Assembly: GCA_963719315.1 (NCBI GenBank)
Contig: CAVRBU010000005.1
Location: 64,001-128,000 of the forward strand
DNA length: 64,000 nt
Direction: 5' to 3'
From: an uncultured Planctomycetota bacterium
GTDB lineage: Bacteria; Planctomycetota; Planctomycetia; Pirellulales; Lacipirellulaceae
Shown here: positions 1 to 18,891 of the stretch, piece by piece
Numbering within the stretch: position 1 is the stretch's first letter
How the letters are laid out: every line of letters starts with the position of its first letter
Made by a program: the position numbers and the translations under genes
The notes under the pieces: model-generated
What the model was told of the DNA's origin: nothing
Database searches by the model: none
What the model saw: only the letters and a program-made list of their open reading frames with translations

Positions 1-578
1 AAAATCAGCCAAGGCGTTCCCATTGCAAACAGATTTCCGAAAAAGCTCTTGGCGCTGAACAGACGGGTACGCTCGTGGTAGTCGCCCGACATTTCCATTC
101 CGAGCGCTCCATGAGGGATTTCAAAGATCGTGGTGGCCGTAAAGAATATGAGCAGGCCACCGAGGATGTAGGCGAGTTGGAACCAGTTGTAGGCAGCCTC
201 CGTGGGGAATAGAGCTCTGGACCAGCTGCCGCGGGGTACCCACCACATGGCGACGAAGCTCAGCGCGACGGCGATGCCACCTAGAAGAATGTAAGGACGT
301 CGCCGCCCCCAGCGAGTTCGCGTGTTGTCGGAAAGGTGCCCCATGATCGGATCAGAGATCGCGTCCCATAAGCGGGGAACGATCATGATCGTCCCCAACC
401 AGAACGCGCTGAGTCCGAGCGAGATATTTCCGAGCAAGCCCATAAGCTGCCCGGCAATGTTAAAGAGGGCAATCGGGATCAAGCCTCCCATGCCGTAGGC
501 GACCAGTTGGTTCCAGTGGACACGGTCCTCCGCCGCATTCGTGTGCCGCTGGCGGGCCGCTATATGGGGTAGTGTCAT
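1..578 (-). CDS. GPH/MelB-family (MFS) glycoside:cation symporter, N-terminal part (runs off window)
   Basis: Hand translation from ATG at 578: MTLPHIAAR...LVAYGMGG...PRLWDAISDPIMGHLSDNTRTRWGRRRPYIL, the GPH-family signature. Confidence 0.9.
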   Translation of the reverse strand, partial: MTLPHIAARQRHTNAAEDRVHWNQLVAYGMGGLIPIALFNIAGQLMGLLGNISLGLSAFWLGTIMIVPRLWDAISDPIMGHLSDNTRTRWGRRRPYILLGGIAVALSFVAMWWVPRGSWSRALFPTEAAYNWFQLAYILGGLLIFFTATTIFEIPHGALGMEMSGDYHERTRLFSAKSFFGNLFAMGTPWLI

Positions 579-793
579 CGGTGTCAGGAACTGGTTGGCG
601 TCATTGAAATCGCGGCCAAATGCTCAATGTGGATGAAGAGCTTTTGTACTCAACTGGAATTGCGAGGCTCCTGCCGAGTCGGAGGATTTGGCGCACCAGC
701 AGTCTGCCCACGCCGAATTCAGACGTAGTTACGTTGAATCCCGACAAGGTACTCGCCACGGCCCGACTCAATGATTAAGCTAAGAGAATGGAC

Positions 794-807
794 TGAAAGC
801 GCTTGCG
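794..807. promoter_or_regulatory. LacI-family operator, copy 1
   Basis: TGAAAGCGCTTGCG, palindrome-like with central CG, between divergent transporter and GH94 genes. Confidence 0.7.
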
Positions 808-847
808 GTCCCTACCGACTAGGGTTTTACCACATCGGCGACACATT

Positions 848-3800
848 ATGAAGCCAGCTTCAGCCAGTAGTATTCCGAGACGCCGCGCCTCCCCCTCTGT
901 TGAATGGTCAAGGGAACTACCATCGCAGGTCGTTTCACTTTCAAATGGCCATTACACAGTTCGGCTCAGCGAGGTCGGAAGCGGCTACTCTGAATGCCGC
1001 GGGGCGGCAGTAACGCGATGGACAGGGGATGAAACCTGCGATGCCGACGGGTTTCATATCTATTTGCAAGACCTGGAGATCGACCATGTCTGGTCGGCCG
1101 GCTATCAGCCGACTCGCGAGGCTGCTCAGCAATACGATTTCCATTGTGAGCGCGGTGTGGCAGAAATCGTGCGGCTAGACAGTGGCATCGAATGTCGCCT
1201 GACGGTGTGTGTTTCACCACAGTACGATTTCGAGATTCGTCGCTGCCAATTGACGAATCTGGGTGAGGGGAGGCGCCGCCTCAGCATTACGAGCTACTTG
1301 GAGTGGGTGCTCGGCAACCGTGACGCCGACGCCAACCACCCGGCGTTTTCAAAGCTGTTTGTCGAAACCGACTTCTGCGCGGAGCACAGGGCAATCCTGG
1401 CCAGGCGTCGCCCGCGGCATGGTGGTGAGACTGATTGTTGGGGGTTTCATGCCGTGATTGGCGGCCCCGCCGCGGATCAGCAAGGCCCAATCGAATTTGA
1501 GACGAATCGTGCCAGATTCATCGGCCGTGGCCACACCATCGCGCGGCCCAAAGCAATAGTACCGGGCGCGATTCTGAGTGGTGACAGGGGGTCGGTGCTC
1601 GACCCGATCGCTTCTCTGCGAGTTGCTCTCGAACTCAAAGCAAACGAATCACAAGTAGTCGCGTTCGTGCTGGGCGCGGCACCGAACCGGGCTGAGGTCG
1701 CTCGATCTCTCGAAGTGACACGAAATATGGCCGATGTGGAGCGCGTTTTTAATGAGGTCCGTTCGTCCAGCTTATTAGACGATTTTCAGCGCGACCCAAT
1801 TTGGCCGACGAATGGTAGTGGCAAACCAGAGCGTGTAATAATTCATTCGCCGCATCGGTCCCAGCGAACTTCCGCCGCTGTAGCCCCAGAAATCTCATAC
1901 TTGCCAGCCGGCGTCGAGGCATTGGAAGGCCAACCTGGCGGCTCCGACACCCGGCAACCGTTGCAATTTGAAAACGGCTATGGCGGGTTCTCTGCGGATG
2001 GCCGTGAATACGTCATTCGCCTCTCGCCTGAGGGTCGAGAAGGTTCTCGTCGCCCTCCCCTACCATGGATCAATGTAATCGCCAACGAGCATGCGGGGTT
2101 TCTCGTCACCGAAAGCGGGGCCGGCTATACCTGGTCCGGCAATAGCCGATTAAATCGGCTTACCGCCTGGCATAATGATCCCGTGACCGATCCGCACAGT
2201 GAGGCCCTCTGGATTCGGGACGAAGACGCCGGCGTTTTCTGGTCGCCATTGCCGGGTCCAACACCCGCCGCGAGCGAATACCTTGTGCGTCATGGTTTCG
2301 GCTACACGACGTTCGAGCATGAAAGTCATGGCCTTTTGCAAGAAACGACTTTGTTCGTAGCTGCTGACGAACCCGTGAAACTCACTCGGATTCGGCTCGT
2401 GAATCGCAGTAACCGCACGCGCCGCTTGTCGCTCTTTTCATATTTACATTGGGCGCTTGGCGGGCTTGCCGGCGAAAGCTCGGGCCAGATCGATACTGAG
2501 TATGATGCCAATGAGCAAGTGATTTGGGCAACGAACCCTAACCGGGAGCACTATGGTGGCTGCGTTGCCTTTTCAACTCTACGAATTGATGGTTCTCCCC
2601 AAGACGATTCCGTCGCCTTCTCTTGTGATCGAGCCTCTTTCCTAGGGCGTGACGGCGACGCCCGATCGCCGGCGGCAATCGCGAAGGACTTAGAGCTTGA
2701 TCGTCGCGCTGGAAGCGAGCTTGATCCATGCGCCGCGTGGCAGGTATCGATTGAATTGCCACCAGATCGGGAATTCGAATGCACGTATCTACTTGGTGAA
2801 ACAGTCGATCGCGTTACGGCCGCCAGGCTGATCGACAAATTTGGCAACAAGGAGTTGGTGCAGCAGGCGTTGAGTCAGGTGAAAGCGTTTTGGCGCGATG
2901 CGGTTTCGGGAATCACTATTGAAACTCCGGACCGCGAAATCGACCTGCTGGTGAACGGCTGGCTGGTATACCAAAACCTGAGTTGCCGGATTTGGGGACG
3001 GTCGGCCTATTATCAGTCGGGGGGCGCTTTTGGCTTTCGAGATCAGCTTCAAGACGCGGCCGCCTTGGTTTACCATTGCCCGGAAATTACGCGCTCGCAA
3101 ATTCTTCGGCACGCAGCCCAGCAATTCGATGAAGGGGACGTCCTGCACTGGTGGCACCCCGATACGGGCTATGGTTTGCGTACACGATTTTCCGATGACC
3201 TCCTCTGGATGCCGTTCGTCACGGCCGACTACATACAAAAATCAGGCGATGTGGCGATTCTTCAGGAAGAATTGCCATTCCTCACGGCGGCTCGACTTGC
3301 CGATGGGCAAGCGGAGGTCTATCTTCGCCCGGCTCCTTCGGGAAAGAGGGCCACGCTGTATGAGCATTGTTGTCGGGCGTTGGACCTCGGCCTGACTAGT
3401 GGACAACATGGGCTGCCGTTAATCGGTTGCGGCGATTGGAATGATGGTTTCAGCCGAGTCGGCCATTTGGGCCGCGGTGAGAGCGTCTGGCTTGGGTTTT
3501 TCATTGATTATGTTCTCGAGCGTATGCTGCCTATTTGTAGTCAGCACGGCGATCAACCGCGGGTTGCGCAATACACGGCCTATCGCGAACGGCTTCGTGC
3601 CGCGCTCGACTCGGCCGGCTGGGACGGCGCCTGGTTCCGCCGTGCATATTACGACAATGGCCAGCCAATTGGCTCGGCAACGAGCGATGAATGCCAAATT
3701 GATGCGCTGGTTCAAGCCTGGGCCGTTCTATCGGGCATCGCTTCCGGGGAACGCGCCGAAAATGCGGTGCAGGCGGTGGAGGATCGCCTCGTCTGCAATG

Positions 3801-4414
3801 AGGCAGCCCTGATCCGCTTACTGACGCCGGCTTTCAACAGCACGCCGAACGATCCCGGTTATATCAAAGGTTACTTGCCGGGCATTCGAGAAAACGGCGG
3901 GCAATACACGCACGGCGTGTTGTGGTTCGTCCGCGCGATGGCCGAGTTGGGCCACGGCAGCCGGGCTGTCGAATTGCTGCGAATGCTGACGCCGATTTGG
4001 CACACGCGCAGCAAGGCCGAGGCCGACACGTATCAAACCGAGCCGTATGTCGTGGCGGCGGATGTGTACGGCGAGCCGCCGCATGTCGGCCGCGGCGGCT
4101 GGACGTGGTACACGGGTTCCGCCGGATGGATGTTTCGCGTCGCCGTGGAATCGATTCTCGGTTTCACAACGGAAAATGGCGACACGATCGTCATGAATCC
4201 CTCGATCTCCGCCACTTGGCCAAAATTCCGGCTCAACTATCGATTGCCGGATGGGAAGACGTGTTTTGAGATCGCGGTAGAGAACCCGTATGGCAAGGAA
4301 CGGGGCGTTACTTCCGCGACGCTCGATGGTCAACCGGTCGCCGTTGTCGATGGATCGGCGCGCATCCCTCTGCTGCACGACGGCAAATCGCACCGCGTGA
4401 TCGTTCGTCTATAA
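848..4414 (+). CDS. GH94 glycoside phosphorylase (resembles C-terminal part of cyclic beta-1,2-glucan synthase Cgs/NdvB)
   Basis: Two tandem GH94 N-terminal-like modules (HPAFSKLFVET; RLTAWHNDPVTD) plus catalytic motifs QSGGAFGFRDQLQD, GDWNDG, ENGGQYTHG, RGGWTWYTGSAGW; ATG 848 preferred over TTG 803. Confidence 0.9.
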   Translation: MKPASASSIPRRRASPSVEWSRELPSQVVSLSNGHYTVRLSEVGSGYSECRGAAVTRWTGDETCDADGFHIYLQDLEIDHVWSAGYQPTREAAQQYDFHCERGVAEIVRLDSGIECRLTVCVSPQYDFEIRRCQLTNLGEGRRRLSITSYLEWVLGNRDADANHPAFSKLFVETDFCAEHRAILARRRPRHGGETDCWGFHAVIGGPAADQQGPIEFETNRARFIGRGHTIARPKAIVPGAILSGDRGSVLDPIASLRVALELKANESQVVAFVLGAAPNRAEVARSLEVTRNMADVERVFNEVRSSSLLDDFQRDPIWPTNGSGKPERVIIHSPHRSQRTSAAVAPEISYLPAGVEALEGQPGGSDTRQPLQFENGYGGFSADGREYVIRLSPEGREGSRRPPLPWINVIANEHAGFLVTESGAGYTWSGNSRLNRLTAWHNDPVTDPHSEALWIRDEDAGVFWSPLPGPTPAASEYLVRHGFGYTTFEHESHGLLQETTLFVAADEPVKLTRIRLVNRSNRTRRLSLFSYLHWALGGLAGESSGQIDTEYDANEQVIWATNPNREHYGGCVAFSTLRIDGSPQDDSVAFSCDRASFLGRDGDARSPAAIAKDLELDRRAGSELDPCAAWQVSIELPPDREFECTYLLGETVDRVTAARLIDKFGNKELVQQALSQVKAFWRDAVSGITIETPDREIDLLVNGWLVYQNLSCRIWGRSAYYQSGGAFGFRDQLQDAAALVYHCPEITRSQILRHAAQQFDEGDVLHWWHPDTGYGLRTRFSDDLLWMPFVTADYIQKSGDVAILQEELPFLTAARLADGQAEVYLRPAPSGKRATLYEHCCRALDLGLTSGQHGLPLIGCGDWNDGFSRVGHLGRGESVWLGFFIDYVLERMLPICSQHGDQPRVAQYTAYRERLRAALDSAGWDGAWFRRAYYDNGQPIGSATSDECQIDALVQAWAVLSGIASGERAENAVQAVEDRLVCNEAALIRLLTPAFNSTPNDPGYIKGYLPGIRENGGQYTHGVLWFVRAMAELGHGSRAVELLRMLTPIWHTRSKAEADTYQTEPYVVAADVYGEPPHVGRGGWTWYTGSAGWMFRVAVESILGFTTENGDTIVMNPSISATWPKFRLNYRLPDGKTCFEIAVENPYGKERGVTSATLDGQPVAVVDGSARIPLLHDGKSHRVIVRL

Positions 4415-4422
4415 TCCGGCTC

Positions 4423-5795
4423 GTGAGTGTTTCCTTGTCCGACCACGCTTTTCCCGCCGGTTTTCTTTGGGGCGCCGCCACAAGTGCCTATCAAATCGAG
4501 GGCTCGCCTCTTGCCGATGGGGCAGGCGAAAGCATTTGGCATCGCTTCGCCCATACATCGGGAAACATTGTTGCGGACCAGCACGGCGACAACGCCTGCG
4601 ATCACTATCGGCGATTTTTGGACGACATCGCCTTGATGCGCGACTTGGGAATCCGCGCGTATCGCTTCAGCACTAGTTGGTCTCGCGTAATGCCCGAAGG
4701 AACGGGCAAAGTGAACACCGCCGGGCTGGATTTCTATAAGCGCCTGGTGGATTCGCTCGTTGAGCATGAAATTCAGCCGATGGCCACGCTCTATCATTGG
4801 GATTTGCCGCAGGCGCTTGAAGATCGGGGTGGTTGGGCAAACGCTGAGTCGATCGATTGGTTCGCCCAATATGCGGAGCTAATGTACCGAACATTCGATG
4901 ATCGCATCAAATTGTGGGCGACGATCAACGAGCCGTGGGTAATCGTGGACCAAGGCTACGTGGAGGGTCGGCACGCGCCGGGACATCGTGATTGGGCCGA
5001 AGCGGCACGCGTGTCAAAAAACTTGTTGAAGGCGCATGCTGCGGCCGTGTCCGCGTATCGTTCCATTGGAAAACATTCAATCGGGCTCGTCGTCAATTTG
5101 GTTCCGATCCATCCCGCAACGGCAAGCGAAGCAGACCGTCAGGCGGCGAAGCGGTTAGACACCTATTTCAATCATCAGTTTCTCGACCCCGTTTTGCTCG
5201 GCGAGCAGCCGAGCGCGCTACCCAAAATGTTCGGCTCCGCGTGGCCCGAGTGGACAACCGAAGAACTACAACAAGTCAGGCAGCCCATCGATTTTGTGGG
5301 GATCAACTACTACCTACGATTGGTGGTCTGCGACGATCCGACAACGGGCCCCGCCCGCGCCGCGCGGTAACGCAGCCCAACTGTCCGCGCACGGCGACGG
5401 ATTGGGAGATTTATCCGTCCGGCCTGCTTGAAACTCTTCAATGGGTGCAGGCACGTTACGGCAATCTGCCGCTGTATGTCACGGAAAACGGCGCCGCTTT
5501 CGACGATGTTCTGTTGCCAAATGATCGCGTGGATGACCGCCAGCGTATAGAATACTTGCGTAGCCACTTGCGTGCCGCTCAGCGAGCGATCGAGGCCGGC
5601 GTCGATTTGCGCGGCTATTTTGTCTGGTCTCTGTTGGACAATTTCGAGTGGCAATCCGGCTTTTCCAAGCGCTTCGGCATCGTGTACGTGGATTTTGAAA
5701 CTCAGCGACGTGTGCCGAAAGCCTCCGCTCGTTTTTATACCAACGTGATTCGCGGCAACGGCGCCGTTTTAGCAGGTTCATCGAATGACTCGTAA
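4423..5795 (+). CDS. GH1 beta-glucosidase, frameshifted near 5360-5370
   Basis: FPAGFLWGAATSAYQIEG and TINEP in ORF 4423-5370; YVTENG and WSLLDNFEW in the overlapping frame ending 5795. Confidence 0.9.
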
Positions 5796-7266
5796 GTGTC
5801 TTGCAGTATTGTTGTTCGTTCTCGCGCTGACCGCGACGGCCCGGGCGCAGGACCTCAACGCCGTACGCGACGACCAAATCAATCGGCTGAAAAACTACGT
5901 CGTTGATTCGATTCTGCCATCGGGATTAGTGCGCGATTCTCTGGTACTCAACGGAACCAGCTTCCACCCGGCGACTCCCGATGCCGCCGGCTTCGCGCTG
6001 CTAGGGCTTAGCGCACTCGACCATTTGGGTAAGCTCCCGGATGCCGAGCAGCGAGTGATGAATATCCTCTCGTCCTACGCTGGCCAGACTCCTGGGGTAA
6101 CGCCGGCCCGCTCCGCCGATGGCCACTTCATTCACTTCATGAACATCAACACTGGCGCCCCACAGGGCGGCGGATGGGATGCGTCTTACACTCCAATTGG
6201 CACGGCGCTATTGGTCTCCGGCGCCCAGTTTGCGAAAAACCAATTTGCTGGCAACGCGACGATCGCTTCACTTGCGGACCAACTAACTAACAGCGTCAAT
6301 TTCAACGCGGCCATCCATCCAAGCCTCGACGGCCGCATCTTTCTGGACCAGACCGTCGCCGGTGGCGGCGCGGGCGGTGCAGTAAAGCCGTGGAACGAGT
6401 TCATGCTCGTCGAAAGTTTGGCGTTGCGTGAAACCAACAACGCCCGGGCACTAGCGGTCAAGCATCTCTGGTTGGATACCAACAACATTCCGCAAATATC
6501 TTACGCCGGCATTCCCACGCTCACCGATAATCCCGGCCGATACGCGCCCGCCTTTTGGGTGCAACAGATGCATTTCTTCAACGGCGACTTCCTGCACAGC
6601 ACGGAGTTCGAAACGTTCTTCACGAACCAGCAACTCGCCGACAAGGCCTATTCCAGCGGCGCCCTTGGCCAGGCATATCGCTATGGCCTCACCGCCGGAG
6701 TCAGTCCCAGCGGCGGTTATCAAGTGGATCGAATCCTCGACCAACATAATGTGTTCTCGCCGGAGGCCGTAGCCGCTTGGGGAGATATGGATACCCTGCT
6801 GCAGTTCCATGCCGCACAGGCCCTTCCAGCAAACGACCCACGCTACAAGTACGGCTTGCTGCGCGTTCTGTCGACGAATCCAAGCCTGACGCCCAACGAC
6901 GCGGGATTGGTGGACCATTTGTTTTTGCTATTCGGCCTGGTGGAGAGTCTCGACCCGAACTTCTTCGCGGACCGCGTTTTTCCGGGTTTGGCACCCGCCG
7001 ACTACAACGCCGATGGCGTTGTGGACGCCGGTGATTACGGTGAATGGAGAAAGACTTTCGGCTCGCAAACGCAGTTATGGGCGGACGGGAATGGGGACGG
7101 TGGCATCGACGCCTCCGACTATGTCGTTTGGCGGAAAGGATTGTCGTCACCGGCCCCCGCAGCGGCCGCCAGTGTGCCGGAGCCAAATTCGCTCTTATCC
7201 ATGACCATCATGGGACAAGCGATAATTCTCCTGTCGGGGGGGCTGCGGCGGCGTTTTGCCGTCTAA
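5785..7266 (+). CDS. Secreted GH144/SGL-clan-like (alpha/alpha)6 protein + dockerin-like repeat + PEP-CTERM
   Basis: Signal peptide; SGLVRD, AAGFALLG, GHFIHFMNINTG, TALL, WNE motifs in the same order as in GH144; DYNADGVVDAGDY / ADGNGDGGIDASDY; VPEP-TM-RRR. Confidence 0.65.
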   Translation: MTRKCLAVLLFVLALTATARAQDLNAVRDDQINRLKNYVVDSILPSGLVRDSLVLNGTSFHPATPDAAGFALLGLSALDHLGKLPDAEQRVMNILSSYAGQTPGVTPARSADGHFIHFMNINTGAPQGGGWDASYTPIGTALLVSGAQFAKNQFAGNATIASLADQLTNSVNFNAAIHPSLDGRIFLDQTVAGGGAGGAVKPWNEFMLVESLALRETNNARALAVKHLWLDTNNIPQISYAGIPTLTDNPGRYAPAFWVQQMHFFNGDFLHSTEFETFFTNQQLADKAYSSGALGQAYRYGLTAGVSPSGGYQVDRILDQHNVFSPEAVAAWGDMDTLLQFHAAQALPANDPRYKYGLLRVLSTNPSLTPNDAGLVDHLFLLFGLVESLDPNFFADRVFPGLAPADYNADGVVDAGDYGEWRKTFGSQTQLWADGNGDGGIDASDYVVWRKGLSSPAPAAAASVPEPNSLLSMTIMGQAIILLSGGLRRRFAV

Positions 7267-7290
7267 TAAATTAGTGGTGGAAAAAAGTTA

Positions 7291-7328
7291 TGAAAGCGCT
7301 TGCATTCCTTGAATGCCAGCGCTAAAAT
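7291..7328 (+). promoter_or_regulatory. LacI-family operator copy 2 overlapping a sigma70 promoter
   Basis: TGAAAGCGCTTGCA (7291-7304); TTGCAT-N17-TAAAAT (7300-7328); weaker site TGCCAGCGCTAAAA at 7314-7327. Confidence 0.7.
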
Positions 7329-7382
7329 GCAGCGGGCGGTCGGTCTCGACGACTGCGTCTTCTAACAGCGGAGCATCTCGTC

Positions 7383-8498
7383 ATGGCGGCGAATCGTGTC
7401 GGTTGGAATCGTGGCTTTACGCTCGTCGAGCTATTGGTCGTCATTGCGATCATCGGCATTTTGGTCGCCTTGCTGCTCCCTGCGGTTCAGGCCGCGCGCG
7501 AGGCGGCACGACGCACGCAGTGTAAGAACAATCTCAAGAATATCGGTCTTTCGATTCTTAACTTCTATGATTCATATAAAACGTTTCCCACTGGCGGAAC
7601 GGAGCCGAATCCCACACTTGAAAACTATCTCCAGGATACGTATTCGCAGCCGAACACCTTTCTTCGTAAAGGGCCGGCTAATGGACCGCTGGAGCAAGGC
7701 CTGGGCTGGATGTATCAGATCTTGCCATATTTGGAGGAAGGGGCGGTCAAGGACGTCACACGAACAAGTCAGCTTACGAAGATTGCGATACCACTCTACA
7801 ACTGCCCTTCGCGGCGGGGAGTAACATTTCATAATCAATCGGGTATTTCGCTTGTCGATTACGCGGCAACTGTGGCTGGACCGCCACGTTCCGAAATCGG
7901 TGACACAGAATTCAATAAGTATGTGAACGACCCTGCGCCCTATCCATACTTCAAGAGCAAGCAGGCCGATATCTTTTGGGGCTGCCCAGGCTGCTCTCAG
8001 AGTCAGGGACGCGGGCTGGGCGATCTAAAATCCAAGGTGACGGCTGGACTGAGACCCCAGTTTCGGGGCGTCATCCAGCGCACGGATTGGATGTACACGC
8101 CGTCTCCGGGGTACCACATTGGGTTCACAGGAAAAATGACGTTCGCCAAAATCACCGATGGAACGAGCAAAACCATTCTCGTTGGAGAAAAGTGGGTTCA
8201 TTACAGTTTGGTCGAAGGAACCGGCGGACAAGCGGATGACCGGGGTTGGACCGACGGCTGGGATTTTGACGCCCAACGCTCGACGCTGATTCATCCGCGT
8301 TCCGACGGTGAAAACCCCCCGCCAGACGGTACACCGGATGATCCGTCAAATTATCCGCTCGGTTCTGCCCATTCGGGAGGAATCAACGTGGCATTTGCGG
8401 ATGGATCGGTTAGCTTCATTCCTTATGAAGTCGACTTGGAGACCCTGAACAGACTTGGGAACCGCCAGGATGGGGAGATTATTTCGCAAGGGTTTTGA
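7383..8498 (+). CDS. DUF1559 protein (prepilin-type N-terminus, H-X9-DG motif)
   Basis: [56 protein letters not shown]. Confidence 0.95.
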
Positions 8499-8571
8499 TC
8501 GTGGCGGTCGCTGCTGGCGTAATGTTGCCCGCAGCCGGAAAGAAAAAAATCCAGGCATTTTGATTCAATGG

Positions 8572-8626
8572 TTGACAGTTTTGCGATAATCAATTACGCT
8601 GAATATCGCGATGAGAGCGCTTTCAT
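8572..8626 (+). promoter_or_regulatory. sigma70 promoter followed by LacI-family operator copy 3
   Basis: TTGACA-N17-TACGCT (8572-8600) then near-perfect palindrome ATGAGAGCGCTTTCAT (8611-8626). Confidence 0.75.
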
Positions 8627-8700
8627 AGAATCGCCTTCGGCTGCTTCGTGAACGACTAGGCGTTCGGGAAAATAAAATGCCGCTTTTGGAGACACTTACT

Positions 8701-10200
8701 ATGAGAGCAATTTGGAAACAAGCGGTTTTCTTGGCGGCCTTGACACTCGTGGCTTTCGGGATCGTCTATTCCTCTGCGCTGGCGGCGGATGTTTTGCTCG
8801 ATGGCGGCTTGGAATTGTCCGCTGGGCCGGCGAGCTGGACGCTCACGCAGTCGATCACGGGCGAGCCCGGACTGCCTGTGAGTGCGGTCGAACAGCTTGA
8901 CGCGGGCAATGAACCCATGCCCGTCGAGGGTGAACTCGGCATGCTGTTTAAGTCGACGACGGGAAACAACGGTGTCTATGCAGGAGAGAATAAGGCGGTC
9001 AACGCGAGCATGTCGCAAACCGTCGCTGTCGGCGCCAACCGGACCTTCACGTTTACAGGGCATTCGTTCTTCCAGGCGGACTCTTCCGCCATCGTCGACA
9101 CGCTGGGCGAATTAACGCCTTTGGGCGACTACAACCTGAACACGGTCGTAGATGCCGCGGATTACATCATTTGGCGCGATACGCTCGGCTCGACAACCGA
9201 TTTCCGCGCCAACGGCACCAACGAAGGCGCAAGCTTGGACGTCATTGATCAGGCCGACTACGATTATTGGAGGTCCCGGTTCGGCAACGCTGGGCACGTG
9301 GCCGGCGTCCCCTCGCCCACGCAATCCTTCTTTAAGGTCGAGTTCCTCAACGCGAGCAACGTAGTCCTGAGCACTCCGGTCAACATCGACCTCCGCAGTG
9401 ATCCAACGACCGAAGCCTGGCGAACGGAGACGCAGGCGGGCATCGTCTCTCCGGCCGGCACCACGCAGGCGCGGGTCACGGCCGGCGCGACCAACATGGT
9501 GGCCAATTGTTCGGTTTGCACGGCGGGCCAGGACTTCTTTTTCGACAATTTCTCGCTACAGCAAACGTCCGTTCCATTCGCTGGTGAAAAGCTGGTCAAC
9601 GGCAACCTGAACACGCTCGGCGCACCGGCGGATTGGGTCATCGAAAAAACTGCTCAAGACAACCTTTCGTTTGCTGGTGCGGCGAGCTTTGCCGCTCACA
9701 CTGGCAGCGTGGGTATGTGGCTGCGTTCGTTCAATGCCGGCGATGCCGAAATATTGCAGACCGTCGCTGCCACAGCGGGCGCTGACTACGACTTTTCCGC
9801 CTGGGTCAAATTGCAGGGTGGATACTCTGGATTCGATCCGCTGTCGTCCACGATGACATTTATGACGATGGAGTTTCTCGACGCCGCGAGCACCGTGATT
9901 GGAACAGAGACACTGGACCTCGACGCCGTGGTGCCATATCCCACCGATCCGCAAGGGGAATGGAATCAATTCTTCCTCAATAGTACCGCGCCGGCTAACA
10001 CGGTTAGCGTACGCGTCTCCGTGGGGGCGACCGGCATGGCTGATACCACCATCAATCCGCAGTCGGCGTTTTTCGACGATATGGCGCTGCTCGAAACGCT
10101 GCCGGGCGCGGCGAGTCTCGCGGCCGTGCCCGAGCCGAGTTCCGTCCTGCTGCTGGGAATCGCGCTGGGGATGATCGGCGTTGGGCGACGCAGAAGCTAA
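8701..10200 (+). CDS. PEP-CTERM protein with two beta-sandwich-like repeats and an internal dockerin-like repeat
   Basis: Signal peptide, GDYNLNTVVDAADY, C-terminal VPEPSS-TM-RRRS; alternative start 8677. Confidence 0.85.
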   Translation: MRAIWKQAVFLAALTLVAFGIVYSSALAADVLLDGGLELSAGPASWTLTQSITGEPGLPVSAVEQLDAGNEPMPVEGELGMLFKSTTGNNGVYAGENKAVNASMSQTVAVGANRTFTFTGHSFFQADSSAIVDTLGELTPLGDYNLNTVVDAADYIIWRDTLGSTTDFRANGTNEGASLDVIDQADYDYWRSRFGNAGHVAGVPSPTQSFFKVEFLNASNVVLSTPVNIDLRSDPTTEAWRTETQAGIVSPAGTTQARVTAGATNMVANCSVCTAGQDFFFDNFSLQQTSVPFAGEKLVNGNLNTLGAPADWVIEKTAQDNLSFAGAASFAAHTGSVGMWLRSFNAGDAEILQTVAATAGADYDFSAWVKLQGGYSGFDPLSSTMTFMTMEFLDAASTVIGTETLDLDAVVPYPTDPQGEWNQFFLNSTAPANTVSVRVSVGATGMADTTINPQSAFFDDMALLETLPGAASLAAVPEPSSVLLLGIALGMIGVGRRRS

Positions 10201-10444
10201 GGACGAGTTGGGAGAGGTGGATGCAGACCGAGTCGCACGGGAAATCGACAATGTGGAGCGTCTTTTATTGTGGGGGAAACTTTACTTGGGAGGGTCAACG
10301 AGTGAACTGATGTTTGTGAGCCATCAAGTTCCATAATCTTCTTGACTTGATCGAGAAGGTGACAGAGACTAGGTAAGCGCGGGGACTCACGATTGTTTCG
10401 TGAGTGATGAATTGTTACTCTGAGGCACAATGGGAGAAGTTCTA

Positions 10445-11200
10445 ATGAAACGAATGCTTGTTCTGATTACCGTTCTGGGCCTCGTGGCCTATGGAACGAG
10501 CGTGGCGAATGCCGTCGTCGTAATTGGCGGCGCCACGAACAATGGCAACATGGATAAAATTTCGGTTTCTAGCCAGGTTTTGGCGACGCCGACCGGCTGG
10601 ATCGCGACTTCCGATCCTGTTGGTTCTCCTCCTGTTTTCGACGGTCTCTCGTCCGAGCCGTGGAACAACATTGGTGATGCAACGGGCGATTGCAACGGCG
10701 GTACGGTCGGATGTGGCGTGTTCATTAAGTCGTTCCAAGGAACTGCCGCGACCCCGTTTAACGCCAGCCTGCACCAGGATAACCCTGGCACGCCCGGCAT
10801 GGCGTACATGCTCCACGGTTGGGTTGGCGCCGGGCCGGGCTATTCGGGATTATCCGACCCTGCGACCAGAACGGAGCTCGCCCTGGAGTTCCTCGATGTC
10901 GGTGGCGTTGCAATCCCTGCGAGTGGCTCAGTGTCAGATCTGGATGCTGGCCTGCTGGCTGCCCAGGGCAACGGCAATCCCTTCAGCTATGACGAATACT
11001 GGGTGATGGCGACCGCGCCTGTCGGCACGGCCACCGTCCGGGCTCGCTTCTCAATGGTCAACGGCTATCCAGTACCCAATGCCGGCGATGCGGCATTAGT
11101 CACGGACTATTACACGCTGACCTGCGTCCCCGAGCCGGCAAGCCTCGCCCTTGGCCTGATCGGCGTACTTGGCTTTTTGGGCATAGGGCGACGCCGCTAA
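10445..11200 (+). CDS. PEP-CTERM protein, one copy of the same repeat as the upstream gene
   Basis: GGAG upstream, signal peptide, VPEPAS-TM-RRR. Confidence 0.85.
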   Translation: MKRMLVLITVLGLVAYGTSVANAVVVIGGATNNGNMDKISVSSQVLATPTGWIATSDPVGSPPVFDGLSSEPWNNIGDATGDCNGGTVGCGVFIKSFQGTAATPFNASLHQDNPGTPGMAYMLHGWVGAGPGYSGLSDPATRTELALEFLDVGGVAIPASGSVSDLDAGLLAAQGNGNPFSYDEYWVMATAPVGTATVRARFSMVNGYPVPNAGDAALVTDYYTLTCVPEPASLALGLIGVLGFLGIGRRR

Positions 11201-11245
11201 GCCTTGGTTCCGTGGAGTCGGCGTCTGAAAGCCGAGTCGCTTTCT

Positions 11246-11284
11246 GGGGACGCTCGTTGCGCAACGAGCGTCCCCTTTTTATTT
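11246..11284 (+). terminator. Rho-independent terminator
   Basis: 30-nt palindrome GGGGACGCTCGTTGC/GCAACGAGCGTCCCC followed by TTTTTATTT. Confidence 0.8.
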
Positions 11285-11336
11285 GCTTCGGAGGAAAGTA
11301 AATGAGAAATTGTATGGACGTGGAAGGTGTTGCAAA

Positions 11337-12785
11337 ATGAAGTCGGTAATCTTCGCGCAGTGTCCGTGGCTCCTGGTGGCCGCCGGTGCGGTCGCGACGC
11401 TGCTGGCATGGTCTCCTGTGCTTCTGGCCGAGCCGGCCATCGAAGCCTCCAACGAAAGCCGGTCCGCCTGGAAGTACGACCTTTCGGCGGAGGACCAGGC
11501 GCTCCTCGACGAGATTCAAAAAGGCTGCTTCCAGTATTTCTGGAAGGAAGTCGGCAGCCCGGCCAAGCTGGCCAAAGACAAAACCAGCGACACGGTTTGC
11601 AGCATCGCCGCGGTCGGCTTTCAGCTCTCTTCGCTGCCGATCGGCGTCGAGCGGGGCTGGATCACTAAAGCGGTAGGCCAAGAACGGGCGCTAACGGTGC
11701 TCCGGTCGCTCGTCGAACGCCAGGACAACAAGAAATTCGGCATTTATCTGCATTTTCTCGACGAGCGAACTGGCGGGCTGCCCCACTACTCACGCACAAA
11801 ATACCACTACGAGCGAACGGCCAGCACAGTGGACCACGCCCTGCTTCAGGCGGGAGCGATGACGGCCGCCTCCTACTTCGGCGGCGAAGTCGCCAAAGCA
11901 GCGGAACCGATCATCCAGGACGCCGATTGGCGGGCGATGTTCGACGATAAAGCCGGCTACTTGAGCATGGGCTGGCGGGCAACGACCGATCGAGGCGTCG
12001 ATGGGCCGGGTGAATTCGCTAAAAACCATTGGGAATGGTGCAGCGACGAGGAGCGGCTGATCTACTTTCTGGCCGCCGGCTCGCCAAACGAGAACCATGC
12101 GATCGAACCCGCCGCCTATTTCCATCTCAAGCGTATTGTCAAGCGGCATGCCGAGCTGCCGAGCTACGTTGTCTCCTGGAACGGATCGCTATTCACTTAT
12201 TTCTTCGCACATTGCTGGATCGACTACCGCCATTTGTCGGCCGACGACCCGGCTGCCTTTGGCGAAAAAGGTCCGCCGGTCGATTGGTTCGAGAACTCGC
12301 GCCGCGCCGTGCTCACGCAACGAGAGCGGTGCATCGAGGTGAGCCATCAGTTCCCAACGCTCGGCGAAAACCGTTGGGGCCTCGCTCCGTGTGCATTCCG
12401 CGACAAGTACCTGGTCCACGAAGTGCGGCCCAACATTCGCGACCACGACGAGTGGTACGACGGCGTTGTGCCTCCCTACGCTGCCGGCTCGGCCATCATG
12501 TTCACGCCCCGCGAAAGCCTGGCGGCACTCCGCGAATACAAGTCACTAATTGGCCCCGATGGTCAGCCGCTCGCCTGGCGCGATCCCGCACGGGGCGGCT
12601 ACGCCTTTGTCGATTCATTCAGCCTGGCCCCGCCTTATGGCCACGACGAAAACCTTGGCATCGACGCCGGCCCTCTGCTGCTGGCAATCGAAAACGTGCG
12701 GAGCGGACTGATCTGGCGCTTGTTCATGGAACACGATGTCGCCAAGCGCACCGCCCAGCGACTGCACCTGCACCGGCGCGAGTAG
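11337..12785 (+). CDS. GH144-like endo-beta-1,2-glucanase (glycoamylase-like domain)
   Basis: LLDEIQKGCFQYFW, SIAAVGFQL..GVERGWIT, STVDHALL, WFENSRRA, LGIDAGPLLLAIENVRSGLIWRLFM; signal peptide. Confidence 0.85.
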   Translation: MKSVIFAQCPWLLVAAGAVATLLAWSPVLLAEPAIEASNESRSAWKYDLSAEDQALLDEIQKGCFQYFWKEVGSPAKLAKDKTSDTVCSIAAVGFQLSSLPIGVERGWITKAVGQERALTVLRSLVERQDNKKFGIYLHFLDERTGGLPHYSRTKYHYERTASTVDHALLQAGAMTAASYFGGEVAKAAEPIIQDADWRAMFDDKAGYLSMGWRATTDRGVDGPGEFAKNHWEWCSDEERLIYFLAAGSPNENHAIEPAAYFHLKRIVKRHAELPSYVVSWNGSLFTYFFAHCWIDYRHLSADDPAAFGEKGPPVDWFENSRRAVLTQRERCIEVSHQFPTLGENRWGLAPCAFRDKYLVHEVRPNIRDHDEWYDGVVPPYAAGSAIMFTPRESLAALREYKSLIGPDGQPLAWRDPARGGYAFVDSFSLAPPYGHDENLGIDAGPLLLAIENVRSGLIWRLFMEHDVAKRTAQRLHLHRRE

Positions 12786-13427: not shown

Positions 13428-13476
13428 TTAGGGCGGCCATCGTATCTCGGTCACGCAACTTGCTTCGAGTCGTCTT

Positions 13477-14054: not shown

Positions 14055-14294
14055 ATGATCGCCACCATTAACGATTCCCATCGCTTTGACAGTCAATTCG
14101 ACGAGGCATCCGAAGCCCAGCGTTTCGAACGCTTCACATATCGTCAACGCGGCGAATTCCCCGTGCGTTCGCACGCCGCCCGCACCCGCGCAAAGATGCG
14201 CGGCCGCGGCACCTCCGCTGCTCGAACTAAAGCCCACTCGTTCAACGGCGTCAACCGCCGCGGGCGCGGCAAGCAGTGGGCCACGCTCAGTTAA
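14055..14294 (+). CDS. Small Arg-rich protein (79 aa)
   Basis: AAGGAG RBS before ATG; MIATINDSHRF...SFNGVNRRGRGKQWATLS. Confidence 0.65.
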   Translation: MIATINDSHRFDSQFDEASEAQRFERFTYRQRGEFPVRSHAARTRAKMRGRGTSAARTKAHSFNGVNRRGRGKQWATLS

Positions 14295-14352
14295 CCGGCG
14301 CCGGCTCACTCTATTTCATTTGAACACTAACTCGATTAACTGGAGTCCAAAG

Positions 14353-15171
14353 ATGCGTACTTCGCGTCAGCTCTACGCGTGGCTAATCCTAGTCGGATTG
14401 TTCACCGCCCAAGGTCAGGCGAATTGGATGCAATTCGCCGGCGGGCCGGTTGTTTCGACCGGCACTTGGCCCGGCGGCTCGGCGCTCACCGGCACCGCGG
14501 CCGTCACCGCCAGCAACTTCATAAACGGCAACAGCTCGACGCCGTTCATCGGTCTTACGCCCGTGACGGTCGGGCCCGCGCTCTCGCCCGATTACGTTGC
14601 CACCACCTTACAGCCCAATCCAGGTAACTTGGTGACGCTCATCGGAACTCCTTACAACGACGCCGGAGATAAGTATCGCGTCGTGGTCGATTTTTCCGGC
14701 ACGAGTAGTAGCTCCAGCTCGGGCGTGCTGCCGGCCGGATCGATCTTCGCGATGATCGACCTCGACATCGTGGAGAACTACCGCAACATCAGGGCCGCGG
14801 ATGCGTCCAATGTTCCGATTACGACACCTTGGATCAACGGTCCCAACGGGTACTTCGATATGAACTCGCCGATGATCCCTCAGGGCTCGTTGATCCCGAA
14901 TCCGACGATTACAGGCCCGGTCGGCGGCGTCTATCAAATGTTCGGCGTGTCCTACAACTTCAACGTCGGCATGTGGTTGTTCAAAACGACGCAAGACGTT
15001 CGGAGGATCGCGTTCGACATGGAACGCGGCACTGGCAACAACGCGATCGGCGGCGGCGGCGCCGGCTGGGCGTTTTATGCGCCGCCGGGCGTTCCGGAGC
15101 CTACGTGCGGGGCTCTTATCGGCTGGTGTTTGTTCGTGGCGATCGGTCTACCAATCCGGAGGCGAAGATAA
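14353..15171 (+). CDS. PEP-CTERM protein
   Basis: GGAG RBS, signal peptide MRTSRQLYAWLILVGLFTAQGQA, VPEP-TM-RRRR. Confidence 0.85.
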   Translation: MRTSRQLYAWLILVGLFTAQGQANWMQFAGGPVVSTGTWPGGSALTGTAAVTASNFINGNSSTPFIGLTPVTVGPALSPDYVATTLQPNPGNLVTLIGTPYNDAGDKYRVVVDFSGTSSSSSSGVLPAGSIFAMIDLDIVENYRNIRAADASNVPITTPWINGPNGYFDMNSPMIPQGSLIPNPTITGPVGGVYQMFGVSYNFNVGMWLFKTTQDVRRIAFDMERGTGNNAIGGGGAGWAFYAPPGVPEPTCGALIGWCLFVAIGLPIRRRR

Positions 15172-15251
15172 TGTTCCGACCCAGTCGGTGATTCATGTCA
15201 GCACTCAACCCTAATTGTAATTCGAAAACCTTTTTCAACTGGAGAAATCTC

Positions 15252-16325
15252 ATGAACTTTTCGACCACACGAATGACTGTCTGGCTCGCCCTTGTGGCGG
15301 CGAGCACCATCCTCGCGACGCAGTCGCAAGGCGACCCGCTGCCGGGCCGCGATTTGCTGAAGTTCGATCAGCAACCAATGGATAAAACGCCCATTGTCGA
15401 TTCGACGGGCGTGACGATTGGTATCTACGGCGGCCACGACGAACTGAGCACGGCCTACGGTTTTGTAAATCCGAACGGCGTAATCACGGACTACAACGGC
15501 CCCTTCATGGCCGACGACTTCGCCGATAACCTCACCAGTCCCGTCGTTCACGTGAAGTGGTGGGGTTCCTATCTCAATAACAACAACGCCGCGTTCCCGC
15601 CGCAACCGCCTGTGCAGAAGTTTCTGATCGCATTCGAGACGGACGTACCGGCAGGTCCCGCTCCAAGCTTCAGCACGCCAGGCCAAGTGCTGCAGGCCGA
15701 CGTGGTAACCGCTGGACCATTATCTCCCGGCTCCGGCACCTTTACAGAAAAGCTCATCCGCGGCCCAGACCCGATCCTCGGTGAGTCGCTCTACGAGTAC
15801 AACGCCGAGTTGCATCTCGGTCACGAGTTCTTCGAAAAGAAGGACACCGTCTATTGGTTGAAGATTGCCGCGCTGGTTGATGTTCCGGCCGGAATCAACT
15901 TCCCGGTCAACATGCCACCACTAGGCATCACCCAATGGGGCTGGCACAACCGCGACTACACCATTAAGGACACACTTGCTTCGCCGGTCCCAGTGCCTGG
16001 CGAGTACGTTGACGGCGTGGTCGGCGCCAACAACATTTACCACTTCCAGGATGATGCCGTCACCGGCGACTTGCGATACACAACCGTGCCGGGCGCACCG
16101 AACTTCGGCGTCTTTCAACCGCCGCAGAACATGTCGCCGACAAACTATATGGGCTTTACCGACGGTCCCAACACCGGCCAGATTCCCGGTCAGCTTGGCA
16201 TCGACGGTCATTCCAAGGATCTCGCCTTCAGTTTGTACACGGTCGTGCCCGAGCCGGCTACATGCCTGCTACTCGTTTGCGGAACGCTGGGCTTAGGCTT
16301 AGTGCAACGCCGGCGTCGTGGTTGA
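15252..16325 (+). CDS. PEP-CTERM protein (ADDF...VHVKWWGSY domain)
   Basis: GGAG RBS, signal peptide, VPEPAT-TM-RRRR. Confidence 0.85.
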   Translation: MNFSTTRMTVWLALVAASTILATQSQGDPLPGRDLLKFDQQPMDKTPIVDSTGVTIGIYGGHDELSTAYGFVNPNGVITDYNGPFMADDFADNLTSPVVHVKWWGSYLNNNNAAFPPQPPVQKFLIAFETDVPAGPAPSFSTPGQVLQADVVTAGPLSPGSGTFTEKLIRGPDPILGESLYEYNAELHLGHEFFEKKDTVYWLKIAALVDVPAGINFPVNMPPLGITQWGWHNRDYTIKDTLASPVPVPGEYVDGVVGANNIYHFQDDAVTGDLRYTTVPGAPNFGVFQPPQNMSPTNYMGFTDGPNTGQIPGQLGIDGHSKDLAFSLYTVVPEPATCLLLVCGTLGLGLVQRRRRG

Positions 16326-16516: not shown

Positions 16517-18891
16517 ATGCGTGGATACGATCAATCGCATAGGGCTTCCACAATGCTACATCGCCTCTTTCTGGCCGCACTACTGATACTGTTTGCAGAA
16601 GCCACCGCCCGAGCTGCCAGCGTTGTCAGTTACGGCGCCAATGGAACCGATACAATTGACGACAAGGCGGCTTTTCAGAATTGCATCAATGCTAACACGC
16701 TGATCGACATTCCGGCTGGAACCTACTACATCTCGAAGAAGCTCAGCTTGCCCGCCAATCGCACGTTGCGCGGCGTCTTGAAGAATCCTGACGCGGTCAT
16801 ACTCAAGCTGGTCGGCGCGATTGATGGGATCGATGTCGGTCCAGCCGCGAACACGACCGTTCAAGATCTATCCCTTGACCGTGTGAGCCCCAATACGGCG
16901 ACTCGCGCGATGGTGTATTCGGGATCAAGCAACTTCACTGTGCGGCGTGTCAATGTGCTCAACCACCGTAGCACCGCACCTGCCATCATCGTCAATCTCG
17001 GAACCAAGGGCTTGATTGAGGATTCCTTGGTTAGCTACTATGGTTGGTTCGATACCGGGTTAAAACAAGTGCGAGGCGTCGGTATTCGACTATCCGATTG
17101 CGTAGACTCCGTCGTCCGAAACAACCGGGTGATTGAGAACCAAAACTTGATCCCAGCTAACCCCGTTTCTAATTTTTACCAGGCGGGAGGCATTGAAATC
17201 AGTGGTAATGCGCGGGCAGTCGTGGAATACAACACGGTCGTCACTGCAGGTAACGGAATCGACGCCGGCCAAGCCAGCGGCAGTGTGCTGCGATTCAACA
17301 CCGTCCGGAACGCGCACGAAGCTGGGATCAAACTAGTCAATGGTGCGCACGATAATACGATTTTCGCCAACGTGGTGGATAAGGTTGGCATTGCCAATAT
17401 TTGGTTGACCCCAGGCAGTTTAGGTCCCGAGCAAGCGCAATTTACAACAACACGATCCGGGGCAATGTCCTGCGTGGCACGGGACTAGGAATCGGTATCG
17501 GCTACTGGTCCGTGCCCAACTATCGGCCCAGTGGCATCGTCCTGGAGGGTTCCAATAATACGGACACCGTTGTGGCCCGAAATAATACGATTGCCAACAA
17601 CTCGATCCAGCCCACACGTAAGCTGGTCAATCCCGTCGAGGTATACAACGGATTCGCGTATGACCCCTATGGCAACGCGATTTCTGGGAACATGTTGCGG
17701 CCGATTGAGCGCGATGATTACTGTTTCTTTCGTCCTGGCAGCGGCGCCGGTTTGTGGCGCGCCGTGCTGAACGCCGGCGGTAGTCCGCCCGATATCGACG
17801 GCATAAGTGGCGACTTTGTGTTGAGCGGCCAGTTCGGCAATGGCTCCTCAAACGACCTTGCGTTGGTGGGCGACATCAATGGCGACGGAGCCGATGACCG
17901 CGTCGTCTACAACACAGCTACCAACGCGTGGATCTGGGACTCCGCGCCGCGGACTGGCTTCGCCGTGCGTGGCGGATTTGGTGATGGTGATGGTTCGGCT
18001 GAGCAAGCCTCGAACGCATTTGGCCAGCCCGGTGATGTGCCCTTGATCGGAGATATCAATGGCGACGGAGCTGCCGATCGCGTTATGTTTCGCCCAAGCG
18101 ATTCATCCTGGCACGTCGATCTGTCGACCATCCCAGTCTGGCCGTACAACCCGGTGACTCAGGGTTTTGGCGATGGAGTCGAAGATGTACTTGGCGGCAA
18201 CGCCATTTACAACGCCGGGGGAGTGGTGATCGGCCAGGTCGCACTGTCCGATTATGACGGCAACGGAATTGCCGATCGAACCCTATTCAGCGCCGGCGGA
18301 TTTTACCGGTCACTTAATCCGGGCGGCGGCGCGTGGAGCACAGGCGGCGATAACGCAAGCGTGGGAGTCGGGCTAGGCGATGCCGACTTTATTCCGCCTG
18401 CAGAACTCGGAGATTTCGATGGCGACGGCCTCAGCGACAACATCGCTTGGAACGGCATCGGCAATTCTACGGTTTTCGCACGCCTCTCTACGACCTTGCC
18501 CCCCTGGAGTGAGACGCCGACCGTCAGTGGCAACCACTACGGTGACCCCAATCAAGACACCTCCTTCTTCGTAGGCGACTTCGATCTGAGCGAGTTCCTG
18601 CTTGCGCCCTTGCCACCCGGAGATTACAACGCAGATGGCAGCGTCGATGCGGCCGATTATGTGATTTGGCGGGAGACAATGGGCCGGAACGGGACGGGTC
18701 TAGCTGCCGACGGTAACGGCGACGGCTCGGTAGATGACGCCGACTATGATTTGTGGAGGACGCACTTCGGTGAAACGATGGCATCGGCCTTCAGTTCTAC
18801 GGCGGGAAATAACGTGCCTGAACCATGTAGCCCTGTTTTCCTACTCCTCACCTTGGTTTCATCCAAGCTGCGGCGCCGCTCAGAATGCTGA
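16517..18891 (+). CDS. Secreted beta-helix (pectin-lyase-like) + FG-GAP-like repeats + dockerin-like + PEP-CTERM protein, frameshifted near 17420
   Basis: YGANGTDTIDDKAAFQ...IPAGTY beta-helix start; GDINGDGADD repeats; GDYNADGSVDAADY; VPEP; two overlapping ORFs. Confidence 0.75.

Follow-up and report, generated by a model that had tools for sequence, protein, structure and literature searches.

Organization of the locus

We analysed a 64,000-nucleotide stretch of DNA from an uncultured planctomycete of the family Lacipirellulaceae (contig CAVRBU010000005.1; G000:C5:64001-128000), hereafter called the window. Its first 12,785 positions carry a putative locus for the utilisation of beta-1,2-glucan. 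Within it, a pilin-like protein with a DUF1559 domain (P0005, gene DUF1559a) is encoded next to predicted glucan-degrading enzymes and to surface proteins with PEP-CTERM sorting tails. The source genome measures 5.93 Mb and is 90.7% complete, a figure that applies to every genome-wide search reported below. The gene inventory, drawn from a listing of open reading frames (ORFs) and from profile scans, is as follows.

3..578 (region 1..578), minus strand: GPH (MFS_2) sugar:cation symporter, 5' part (PF13347, 2.6e-38; TIGR00792)
803..4414, plus strand: GH94 glycoside phosphorylase, 1203 aa (PF06165 in two stretches; PF17167)
4423..5795, plus strand: GH1 beta-glucosidase, frameshifted (PF00232; TIGR03356)
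5785..7266, plus strand: GH194-like secreted protein P0001, 493 aa (PDB 8xuk, PgSGL3)
7383..8498, plus strand: DUF1559 and N_methyl pilin-like protein P0005, DUF1559a (PF07596; PF07963; TIGR04294)
8677..10200, plus strand: PEP-CTERM protein P0002, 507 aa (PF07589)
10430..11200, plus strand: PEP-CTERM protein P0003, 256 aa (PF07589)
11246..11275, plus strand: terminator-like hairpin, 13-bp stem followed by TTTTTATTTG (consensus scan only)
11283..12785, plus strand: secreted GH144 endo-beta-1,2-glucanase homologue P0004 (PF10091; PDB 8xul and 5gzh)

The scans recovered, in one cluster, the GPH, GH94, GH1, DUF1559 and PEP-CTERM genes named in a preliminary description of this DNA, and matches to PF17167, PF00232 and PF10091 bore out its enzyme families. 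Two of its counts had to be revised. It listed two GH144-like genes; P0004 is one, but P0001 is closer to GH194 (PgSGL3). It also listed three PEP-CTERM genes. Three tails are present, but the third belongs to the GH194-like gene itself, so that the locus has eight genes rather than nine.

The symporter gene continues into the left flank and ends there. The next gene in the 20-kb flank (L002) encodes a LacI-family regulator (G000:C5:61633-62655), and this LacI-GPH pair is kept beside GH94 in related genomes. The P0005 gene lies on the same strand as its neighbours, with gaps of 116-229 bp. The terminator-like hairpin stands between the PEP-CTERM genes and GH144.

No SusC/SusD gene was found in window part 1..12785 or in the 20 kb to its left, and PF07980 and PF00593 gave zero matches in the whole genome while control genomes matched. 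A SusC/SusD pair just left of the window, the possibility raised at the outset, is ruled out by these searches. A TonB-dependent receptor was likewise not found at the locus, in the flank or in the genome. The earlier statement that the cluster has neither SusD nor a TonB-dependent receptor thus holds beyond the window.

Enzymes encoded by the locus

The GH94 protein is composed of two supersandwich domains (PF06165, 2.7e-145) and a complete catalytic domain (PF17167, 1-420/420, E 2.7e-117). In the PDB it is matched best by the GH94 part at the C-terminus of a cyclic beta-1,2-glucan synthase (Cgs; 8rf9, E 1.3e-251). Cellobiose phosphorylases match at 1e-85 in the PDB sequence search, and no structure of a sophoro-oligosaccharide phosphorylase (SOGP) appears among the 20 PDB sequences matching at E ≤ 1e-5. 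As read from their N-termini, neither GH94 nor GH1 has a signal peptide. The stand-alone GH94 is probably a cytoplasmic beta-1,2-oligoglucan phosphorylase; phosphorolysis of beta-1,2-gluco-oligosaccharides is suggested both by the Cgs GH94 domain, the closest relative with a solved structure, and by the content of the locus. No second GH94 match at E ≤ 1e-50 was found in the genome, which indicates that the source genome encodes no cyclic glucan synthase.

The GH1 gene is split over two frames, with PF00232 positions 3-304 in one and 321-452 in the other; TIGR03356 matches both parts. The orthologue in a related locus (L004) is a single frame of 462 aa. Given intact genes in relatives and multiple frameshifts in several related assemblies, the break may be an assembly error. 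A GH1 enzyme associated with beta-1,2-glucan has reportedly been described.

P0001 has its best PDB match in PgSGL3 (8xuk, E 6.7e-27, residues 46-317). Its translation begins with a signal peptide, contains DYNADG dockerin-like repeats and ends in a VPEP...RRR PEP-CTERM tail. The tail was recognised by eye, Pfam being silent on it, and the dockerin type I profile PF00404 scores 22.6 bits, just under the cut-off of 22.9. The general acid of PgSGL3 (E214, in a numbering that uses an inferred chain-to-protein offset of 20) aligns with E205 of P0001, in the motif NEFML, and this Glu is invariant in 5/5 planctomycete orthologues. We consider P0001 a putative beta-1,2-glucanase of the GH194 (PgSGL3-like) type, whose catalytic competence may be questioned for a reason given below.

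P0004 is, by sequence membership, a homologue of GH144 endo-beta-1,2-glucanases (PF10091 8-220/221, 1.4e-40; XcSGL, PDB 8xul, 3.8e-33; CpSGL, PDB 5gzh, 1e-21). Translation of P0004 probably begins at the ATG at 11337. Signal peptides are found in the translations of P0004, of the GH194-like protein and of the PEP-CTERM proteins. PgSGL3 defines GH194 and XcSGL belongs to GH144, both being specific beta-1,2-glucanases (SGLs) in the sections of PMC12102758 available to us; the same sections place many marine bacteria in Group 3 and cite planctomycete papers. Three beta-1,2-glucan-associated families (GH94, GH194-like and GH144) are therefore found in one locus, and these PDB and Pfam matches back the proposal of a beta-1,2-glucan catabolic set that lacks SusC/SusD.

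Related loci show variations on this set. In five of them (L011, L013, L016, L003 and L009), an extra GH144 of about 750 aa lies between the two PEP-CTERM genes (PF10091 7e-60 for L013:14016-16262). In many relatives, GH194 is replaced or accompanied by a dockerin/PEP-CTERM protein of about 750 aa, which has no Pfam match and 0 PDB sequence hits.

Surface proteins P0002 and P0003

Both P0002 and P0003 match PF07589 above the cut-off. An AlphaFold2 (AF2) model of P0002, built with 57 homologues (pLDDT 86.8), shows two beta-sandwich domains of the carbohydrate-binding module (CBM) type and a low-confidence dockerin-like insert at residues 150-210. The position of this dockerin-like module in the protein varies among P0002 orthologues. 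One homologue of P0002 is recorded from Lacipirellula parvula. Besides PEP-CTERM, P0002 matches no Pfam domain, including CBM families, and a PDB sequence search gave 0 hits. At the level of the predicted structure, the top Foldseek match is a CBM22 tandem (2.8e-10), and the further matches include the surface glycan-binding protein SGBP-B of B. thetaiotaomicron (7kwb). VIA-align superimposed the model on CBM16, CBM61, CBM4-2 and CBM-like tailspike domains with Z scores of 15-17 and rmsd of 2.1-2.9 over 141-156 residues (about 145).

P0003 has a single domain related to the second domain of P0002: an iterated profile built from it finds P0002. Orthologues of P0003 are present in 8 relatives. 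Started from one CBM-like domain, jackhmmer finds only the query itself; started from a larger set, it finds 4 ORFs in the genome, 3 of them near DUF1559 genes. One exosortase (PF09721) is encoded elsewhere in the genome. These features suggest that P0002 and P0003 are exosortase-sorted surface proteins and candidates for a glycan-binding arm.

Only one other site of the genome has the same CBM-like domain family beside DUF1559 (L066, G000:C10:9563-19528). There, an AraC/Peripla_BP_3 regulator is followed by DUF1559 and then by three PEP-CTERM ORFs.

The pilin-like protein P0005

P0005 matches the prepilin N-terminus profile PF07963 (5.8e-8), the whole of PF07596 (1-268/268, 9.4e-42) and TIGR04294, the C-terminal H-X9-DG motif (2.3e-8). 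Its prepilin N-terminus reads FTLVELLVV with the Glu at +5, and similarity to pilins is confined to the first 60-70 residues. The AF2 model has a pLDDT of 84.9. Foldseek found nothing in the PDB at E ≤ 0.001 with this model. A wide VIA structure search returned 15 of 48,161 chains at Z ≥ 2, all of them type IV pilins or pseudopilins of type II secretion systems (T2SS), with weak Z scores of 2.2-3.7. We read the model as a pilin core carrying an insert of about 200 residues, between the helix and the C-terminal sheet, of no known fold. The globular part of P0005 is specific to the clade and well conserved. A complex prediction of P0002 (34-478) with P0005 (36-371) scored 0.36, versus 0.41 for the control.

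Nine T2SSE-family ATPase genes as well as T2SSF and PilN genes occur elsewhere in the genome, none of them in the locus. One cluster (L035, G000:C2:286235-295945) resembles T2SS or type IV pilus clusters. Besides T2SSE, T2SSF and PilN-like genes, it contains several short pilin-like ORFs with weak scores against the DUF1559 profile, which makes it a candidate for the machinery that assembles pilin-like proteins elsewhere in the genome's repertoire. In the available text of the publications found by full-text search on the family name, no function is assigned to the DUF1559 family, and full-text search found no publication combining PEP-CTERM and prepilin proteins in Planctomycetes.

Conservation of DUF1559a within the locus

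Since the genome has 53 DUF1559 genes, the mere presence of one near glucan enzymes is weak evidence; the linkage is shown by conservation rather than by density. A Poisson estimate gives about 11% chance of one DUF1559 gene in 12.8 kb, and <1% for three PEP-CTERM genes, about 160 PEP-CTERM-like ORFs being present in the genome.

Using the stand-alone GH94 as a marker, we searched 60 relatives, 36 from the same family and 24 from other families of the order. It was found in 21/36 of the former and in 0/24 of the latter, where only synthase-type matches occur. Twenty loci around GH94 orthologues were fetched and the window proteins mapped on them. A DUF1559a-like gene (39-81% identity) lies between GH1/GH194 and GH144 in 16 of the 20. 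The common order is LacI, GPH, GH94, GH1, GH194 or the ~750-aa dockerin/PEP-CTERM protein, DUF1559, the 507-aa homologue, the 256-aa homologue and GH144. Some loci have a second GH144 ahead of the 256-aa homologue. Two of the loci without DUF1559a are truncated: in L005 the contig ends right after GH194, and in L012 it also ends, the remainder with DUF1559a and GH144 being found on another contig (L163). In L017 the locus is rearranged and the DUF1559a orthologue retained. For the window genes that lie downstream of GH144, no counterpart was found in those loci that were fetched with 3-4 kb of flank.

DUF1559a is conserved on a par with the enzymes (51-81% identity, versus 57-67% for GH94). 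In a tree with 43 other paralogues of the source genome, from which three fragments were left out, 12 full-length copies from the loci form with P0005 one clade that excludes the paralogues.

The 60 relatives were also searched with P0005 itself, 32 candidates per genome being scored. Matches of 53-60% identity occur in four genomes without stand-alone GH94. In one of these (G024, L155), LacI, GH194 (66%), DUF1559a (59%), the 507-aa homologue and GH144 (62%) stand together. In 8/9 further regions, the DUF1559a-like gene has as its neighbour a PEP-CTERM ORF resembling the 507- or the 256-aa protein; six of these eight have no hydrolase of the locus nearby.

Environmental (metagenome) contigs gave 80 DUF1559 loci, which we divided at 50% identity. 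Genes of the locus stand beside DUF1559 in 15/25 loci at or above this value versus 4/55 below it, and 2 of these 4 hold only distant LacI/GPH homologues. Most of the remaining 10 high-identity loci have <1 kb of flank on one side, while two (L083 and L150) have >3 kb without a match. Co-occurrence of this DUF1559 clade with the hydrolases, as anticipated in the preliminary description, is thus found within the family, in relatives and in environmental contigs alike, but not at three distant planctomycete GH144 loci discussed below. We assign a fair probability to the P0005 gene being functionally part of the glucan locus.

DUF1559 genes across the genome

A PEP-CTERM-like ORF lies within 2 kb of 28/53 DUF1559 genes (7.0 ± 2.4 under random placement, maximum 18 in 2000 trials) and within 3 kb of 32/53 (random, 8.7 ± 2.8). 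ORFs with a dockerin-like repeat motif lie within 3 kb of 32/53 (random, 8.6 ± 2.8). The enrichment near DUF1559 holds for either tag even when ORFs bearing the other are set aside. DUF1559 is therefore a frequent companion of tagged secreted proteins, and a remark on Tuwongella in the available part of PMC8567305 agrees with this.

Pfam scans of the neighbours covered 141 ORFs in the first 19 regions and 108/216 ORFs, about the two nearest per side, in 28 further regions. Classical glycoside hydrolase or glycoside phosphorylase (GH/GP) families were found in only 3/47 other DUF1559 regions (GH113, GH130 and a GH84-like fragment), none of them among the first 19. On this evidence, DUF1559 does not mark glycosidase loci in general. 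Two regions have sulfatases, and two have BNR/sialidase-like proteins. Recurrent features near DUF1559 genes are sugar-type regulators and pairs of an extracytoplasmic function (ECF) sigma factor with a Laminin_G_3 protein; other neighbours are kinases, peptidases, nucleoside phosphorylases and ECF sigma factors. For 74 of the 108 nearest-neighbour ORFs scanned in the 28 regions, there is no Pfam match at E ≤ 1e-10.

In two regions (L041, G000:C2:841125-851423; L044, G000:C2:1005982-1016058), an ECF sigma factor, a Laminin_G_3 protein and DUF1559 follow in the same order. L044 additionally has a BNR_4 protein.

Neighbouring genes

A second surface-protein cassette directly follows the locus (window 13374-20914) and was not found in the loci of relatives. 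It comprises the following genes.

14086..15171: PEP-CTERM ORF
15195..16325: DUF7901 and PEP-CTERM protein
16517..17488: beta-helix protein
17401..18891: dockerin-like/PEP-CTERM protein
19048..19746: ORF without assigned family
20003..20914: second DUF1559 gene

Left of LacI, the genes of the 20-kb flank are unrelated; among their products are an SNF2 helicase, a fusion of a kinase with a tubulin-like domain and an FHA protein. The fusion (L002:3832-6798, minus strand; G000:C5:47832-50798) is a 988-aa protein with an N-terminal Ser/Thr kinase and a Tubulin_2 (tubulin-like) domain; its gene adjoins that of the FHA-domain protein.

A model for the locus

The enzyme set, the localisation signals and precedent clearly favour reading this gene cluster as an operon for the utilisation of beta-1,2-glucan. 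Outside the cytoplasm, the PEP-CTERM-anchored GH194-like protein and the secreted GH144 endo-glucanase would cleave the polymer. The resulting sophoro-oligosaccharides would be taken up by the GPH symporter and phosphorolysed in the cytoplasm by the Cgs-type GH94, yielding glucose-1-phosphate, and the cytoplasmic GH1 would split the leftover short oligosaccharides. These steps are deduced from family membership and localisation signals. The two CBM-type PEP-CTERM proteins, P0002 and P0003, would form an exosortase-sorted glycan-binding arm. P0005 would be matured by prepilin peptidase and assembled by a T2SS or type IV pilus-like machine encoded elsewhere. It may then bring its PEP-CTERM neighbours to the cell surface, or hold them there, as a pseudopilin-like adaptor or as a fibre.

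Taken as a whole, a LacI-regulated operon for exogenous beta-1,2-glucan, equipped with a conserved CBM-fold PEP-CTERM module and a dedicated DUF1559 partner that brings or holds these proteins at the surface, is the explanation we favour, with somewhat more confidence than doubt. The pairing of DUF1559 with PEP-CTERM is tighter than that with hydrolases, and it fits export or display at least as well as capture. We prefer a role in export or display to one in glycan capture because the most constant partner of P0005 is the CBM-fold PEP-CTERM protein and not the hydrolases; that P0005 itself binds the glycan is less likely.

Several observations weigh against this explanation. The hairpin before GH144 may divide the transcription unit. 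The GH1 gene is not read in a single frame, its break lying near 5345-5370 in a G+C-rich run. In P0001, the position of the candidate catalytic base of PgSGL3 (D148) is occupied by Gly in the phmmer alignment (G139), and by Gly or Ser in 5/5 orthologues, so that P0001 might not be a hydrolase; an invariant Asp (D132) lies 7 residues upstream of G139, beside a 4-residue insertion. A CBM-type beta-sandwich alone is no proof of glycan binding. Linkage has its exceptions too. The copy in L018 falls outside the DUF1559a clade and is a different paralogue. In L010 (G010), no DUF1559 was found in 4.3 kb past the dockerin gene, nor at E ≤ 1e-75 in this 76%-complete genome. In L020 (G028, same family), LacI-GPH-GH1, GH144, GH94 and a PEP-CTERM protein are present, but no DUF1559 was found in about 45 kb. 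All positive loci come from one family; kinship inflates the counts, which do not represent independent events. Finally, GH144 at E ≤ 1e-40 occurs in 3/400 other Planctomycetota genomes, a number that leaves the phylum-wide test underpowered, and neither a DUF1559 nor a PEP-CTERM gene was found near these three GH144 genes, one of which is on a 5.5-kb contig.

Alternative explanations

P0005 itself could be the subunit with which a pilus-like fibre captures glycan. The ~200-residue insert would bind beta-1,2-glucan, and retraction or hand-over would feed the surface enzymes, P0005 thereby taking the role of SusD/SusC. The prepilin N-terminus and the exclusively pilin-type structural matches are consistent with this, as are the clade-specific and well-conserved globular part, the conserved position of DUF1559a in the glucan locus and the lack of any SusC/SusD or TonB-dependent receptor match in the genome. 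There is also a precedent: gold-labelled dextran was seen on pili-like fibres of crateriform structures in two planctomycetes, Planctopirus limnophila and Gemmata obscuriglobus, as described in the accessible part of PMC5394234. However, neither Foldseek nor VIA found a carbohydrate-binding fold in the P0005 model. Sister paralogues keep a PEP-CTERM partner with no hydrolase nearby, GH/GP families are scarce in the other DUF1559 regions, and most of the nearest neighbours scanned there are without a Pfam match. The G028 locus, if functional at all, works without DUF1559. Capture by P0005 seems to us rather unlikely. The idea from which this study started, that DUF1559 and PEP-CTERM proteins together form a glycan-capture arm, is supported for P0002 by its CBM-type folds and by conserved linkage, but not for P0005, whose model offers only a pilin core and an insert. 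In the same way, the view that these genes stand where SusC/SusD would be agrees with the linkage within the family, but as a general analogy it has against it G028, the three distant GH144 loci and the 3/47 count.

The DUF1559 and PEP-CTERM genes might instead be passengers, a mobile surface-protein cassette that landed in an ancestral glucan locus and was inherited with it, with a role that has nothing to do with glucan use, for example in adhesion or cell-envelope structure. The restriction of the linked loci to one family, the occurrence of the same cassette type without hydrolases, the heterogeneous neighbourhoods of DUF1559 genes and the related G028 locus all point in this direction. 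Yet the orthologue keeps its place between the enzyme genes where the flanks differ, and also in the rearranged L017 and in L155, which lacks the cytoplasmic half. DUF1559a is as well conserved in sequence as the enzymes, it shares their strand with short intergenic gaps, and its partner protein has CBM folds. For these reasons, we regard the passenger hypothesis as improbable. Recycling of the organism's own periplasmic cyclic beta-1,2-glucan, suggested by four same-family genomes (G003, G011, G022 and G033) that encode a cyclic beta-1,2-glucan synthase of ~2950 aa besides the catabolic locus, is very improbable here, since the source genome has only one GH94 match at the threshold used and no synthase, and since PEP-CTERM anchoring, CBM-fold proteins and a sugar symporter speak for a substrate from outside the cell.

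Comparison with known systems

The favoured explanation, an operon for exogenous glucan with surface display aided by P0005, can be compared with known loci. In Listeria innocua, the cluster lin1838-lin1843 for sophoro-oligosaccharides groups LacI, the GH94 SOGP Lin1839, a GH3 enzyme and an ATP-binding cassette (ABC) transporter, according to the part of PMC3960220 at hand. The planctomycete locus similarly groups LacI, a GH94 phosphorylase, a beta-glucosidase and an importer. In contrast, the closest match of its GH94 is the C-terminal part of cyclic glucan synthase, GH1 stands in for GH3 and a GPH symporter for the ABC transporter, and the locus adds two secreted proteins of the SGL clan, the pilin-like gene and the PEP-CTERM proteins.

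GH144 genes occur in Sus-type loci of Bacteroidota. As in SusC/SusD loci, a regulator, predicted surface binding proteins, a surface endo-enzyme, an importer and intracellular exo-enzymes are united in one locus; here, however, anchoring would be by PEP-CTERM and exosortase and not as lipoproteins, and the SusC/SusD/TonB-dependent receptor part is missing from locus, flank and genome searches.

P0005 is a plain member of the N_methyl and SBP_bac_10 (DUF1559, H-X9-DG) family of Planctomycetota. Within this family, the orthologous clade of P0005 is linked here with a defined catabolic locus and a CBM-fold partner. P0005 shares the N-terminal helix and the Glu at +5 with type IV pilins and T2SS pseudopilins (PilA, GspG/EpsG/PulG), but differs from them by its low Z scores, its large insert and the lack of assembly genes in the locus. 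Like the crateriform dextran-binding fibres, as far as these are described in the part of PMC5394234 available, the locus would represent a planctomycete route of polymer capture without Sus.

Significance

The locus bears on the question of how planctomycetes manage, in the absence of Sus or TonB systems, to bind polymers and take them up, which is also raised in the accessible part of PMC5394234. A broader hypothesis, which we regard as speculative and would not yet bet on, is that the expanded DUF1559 family consists of pilin-like adaptors, each specific for a cargo or substrate and inherited together with its own PEP-CTERM- or dockerin-tagged surface proteins. The pair would act at the outer surface as the capture and delivery device that replaces SusC/SusD, and may also form the crateriform dextran-binding fibres. 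The locus described here would then be the beta-1,2-glucan instance.

With its stand-alone Cgs-type GH94, the locus would add Lacipirellulaceae-like planctomycetes to the bacteria that catabolise beta-1,2-glucan. DUF1559 is one of the largest families of paralogues in planctomycetes, and the locus offers a testable clue to its function. Its narrow and defined predicted substrate, its characterised enzyme relatives, its one dedicated DUF1559 orthologue and its CBM-fold partner make it a clean test bed.

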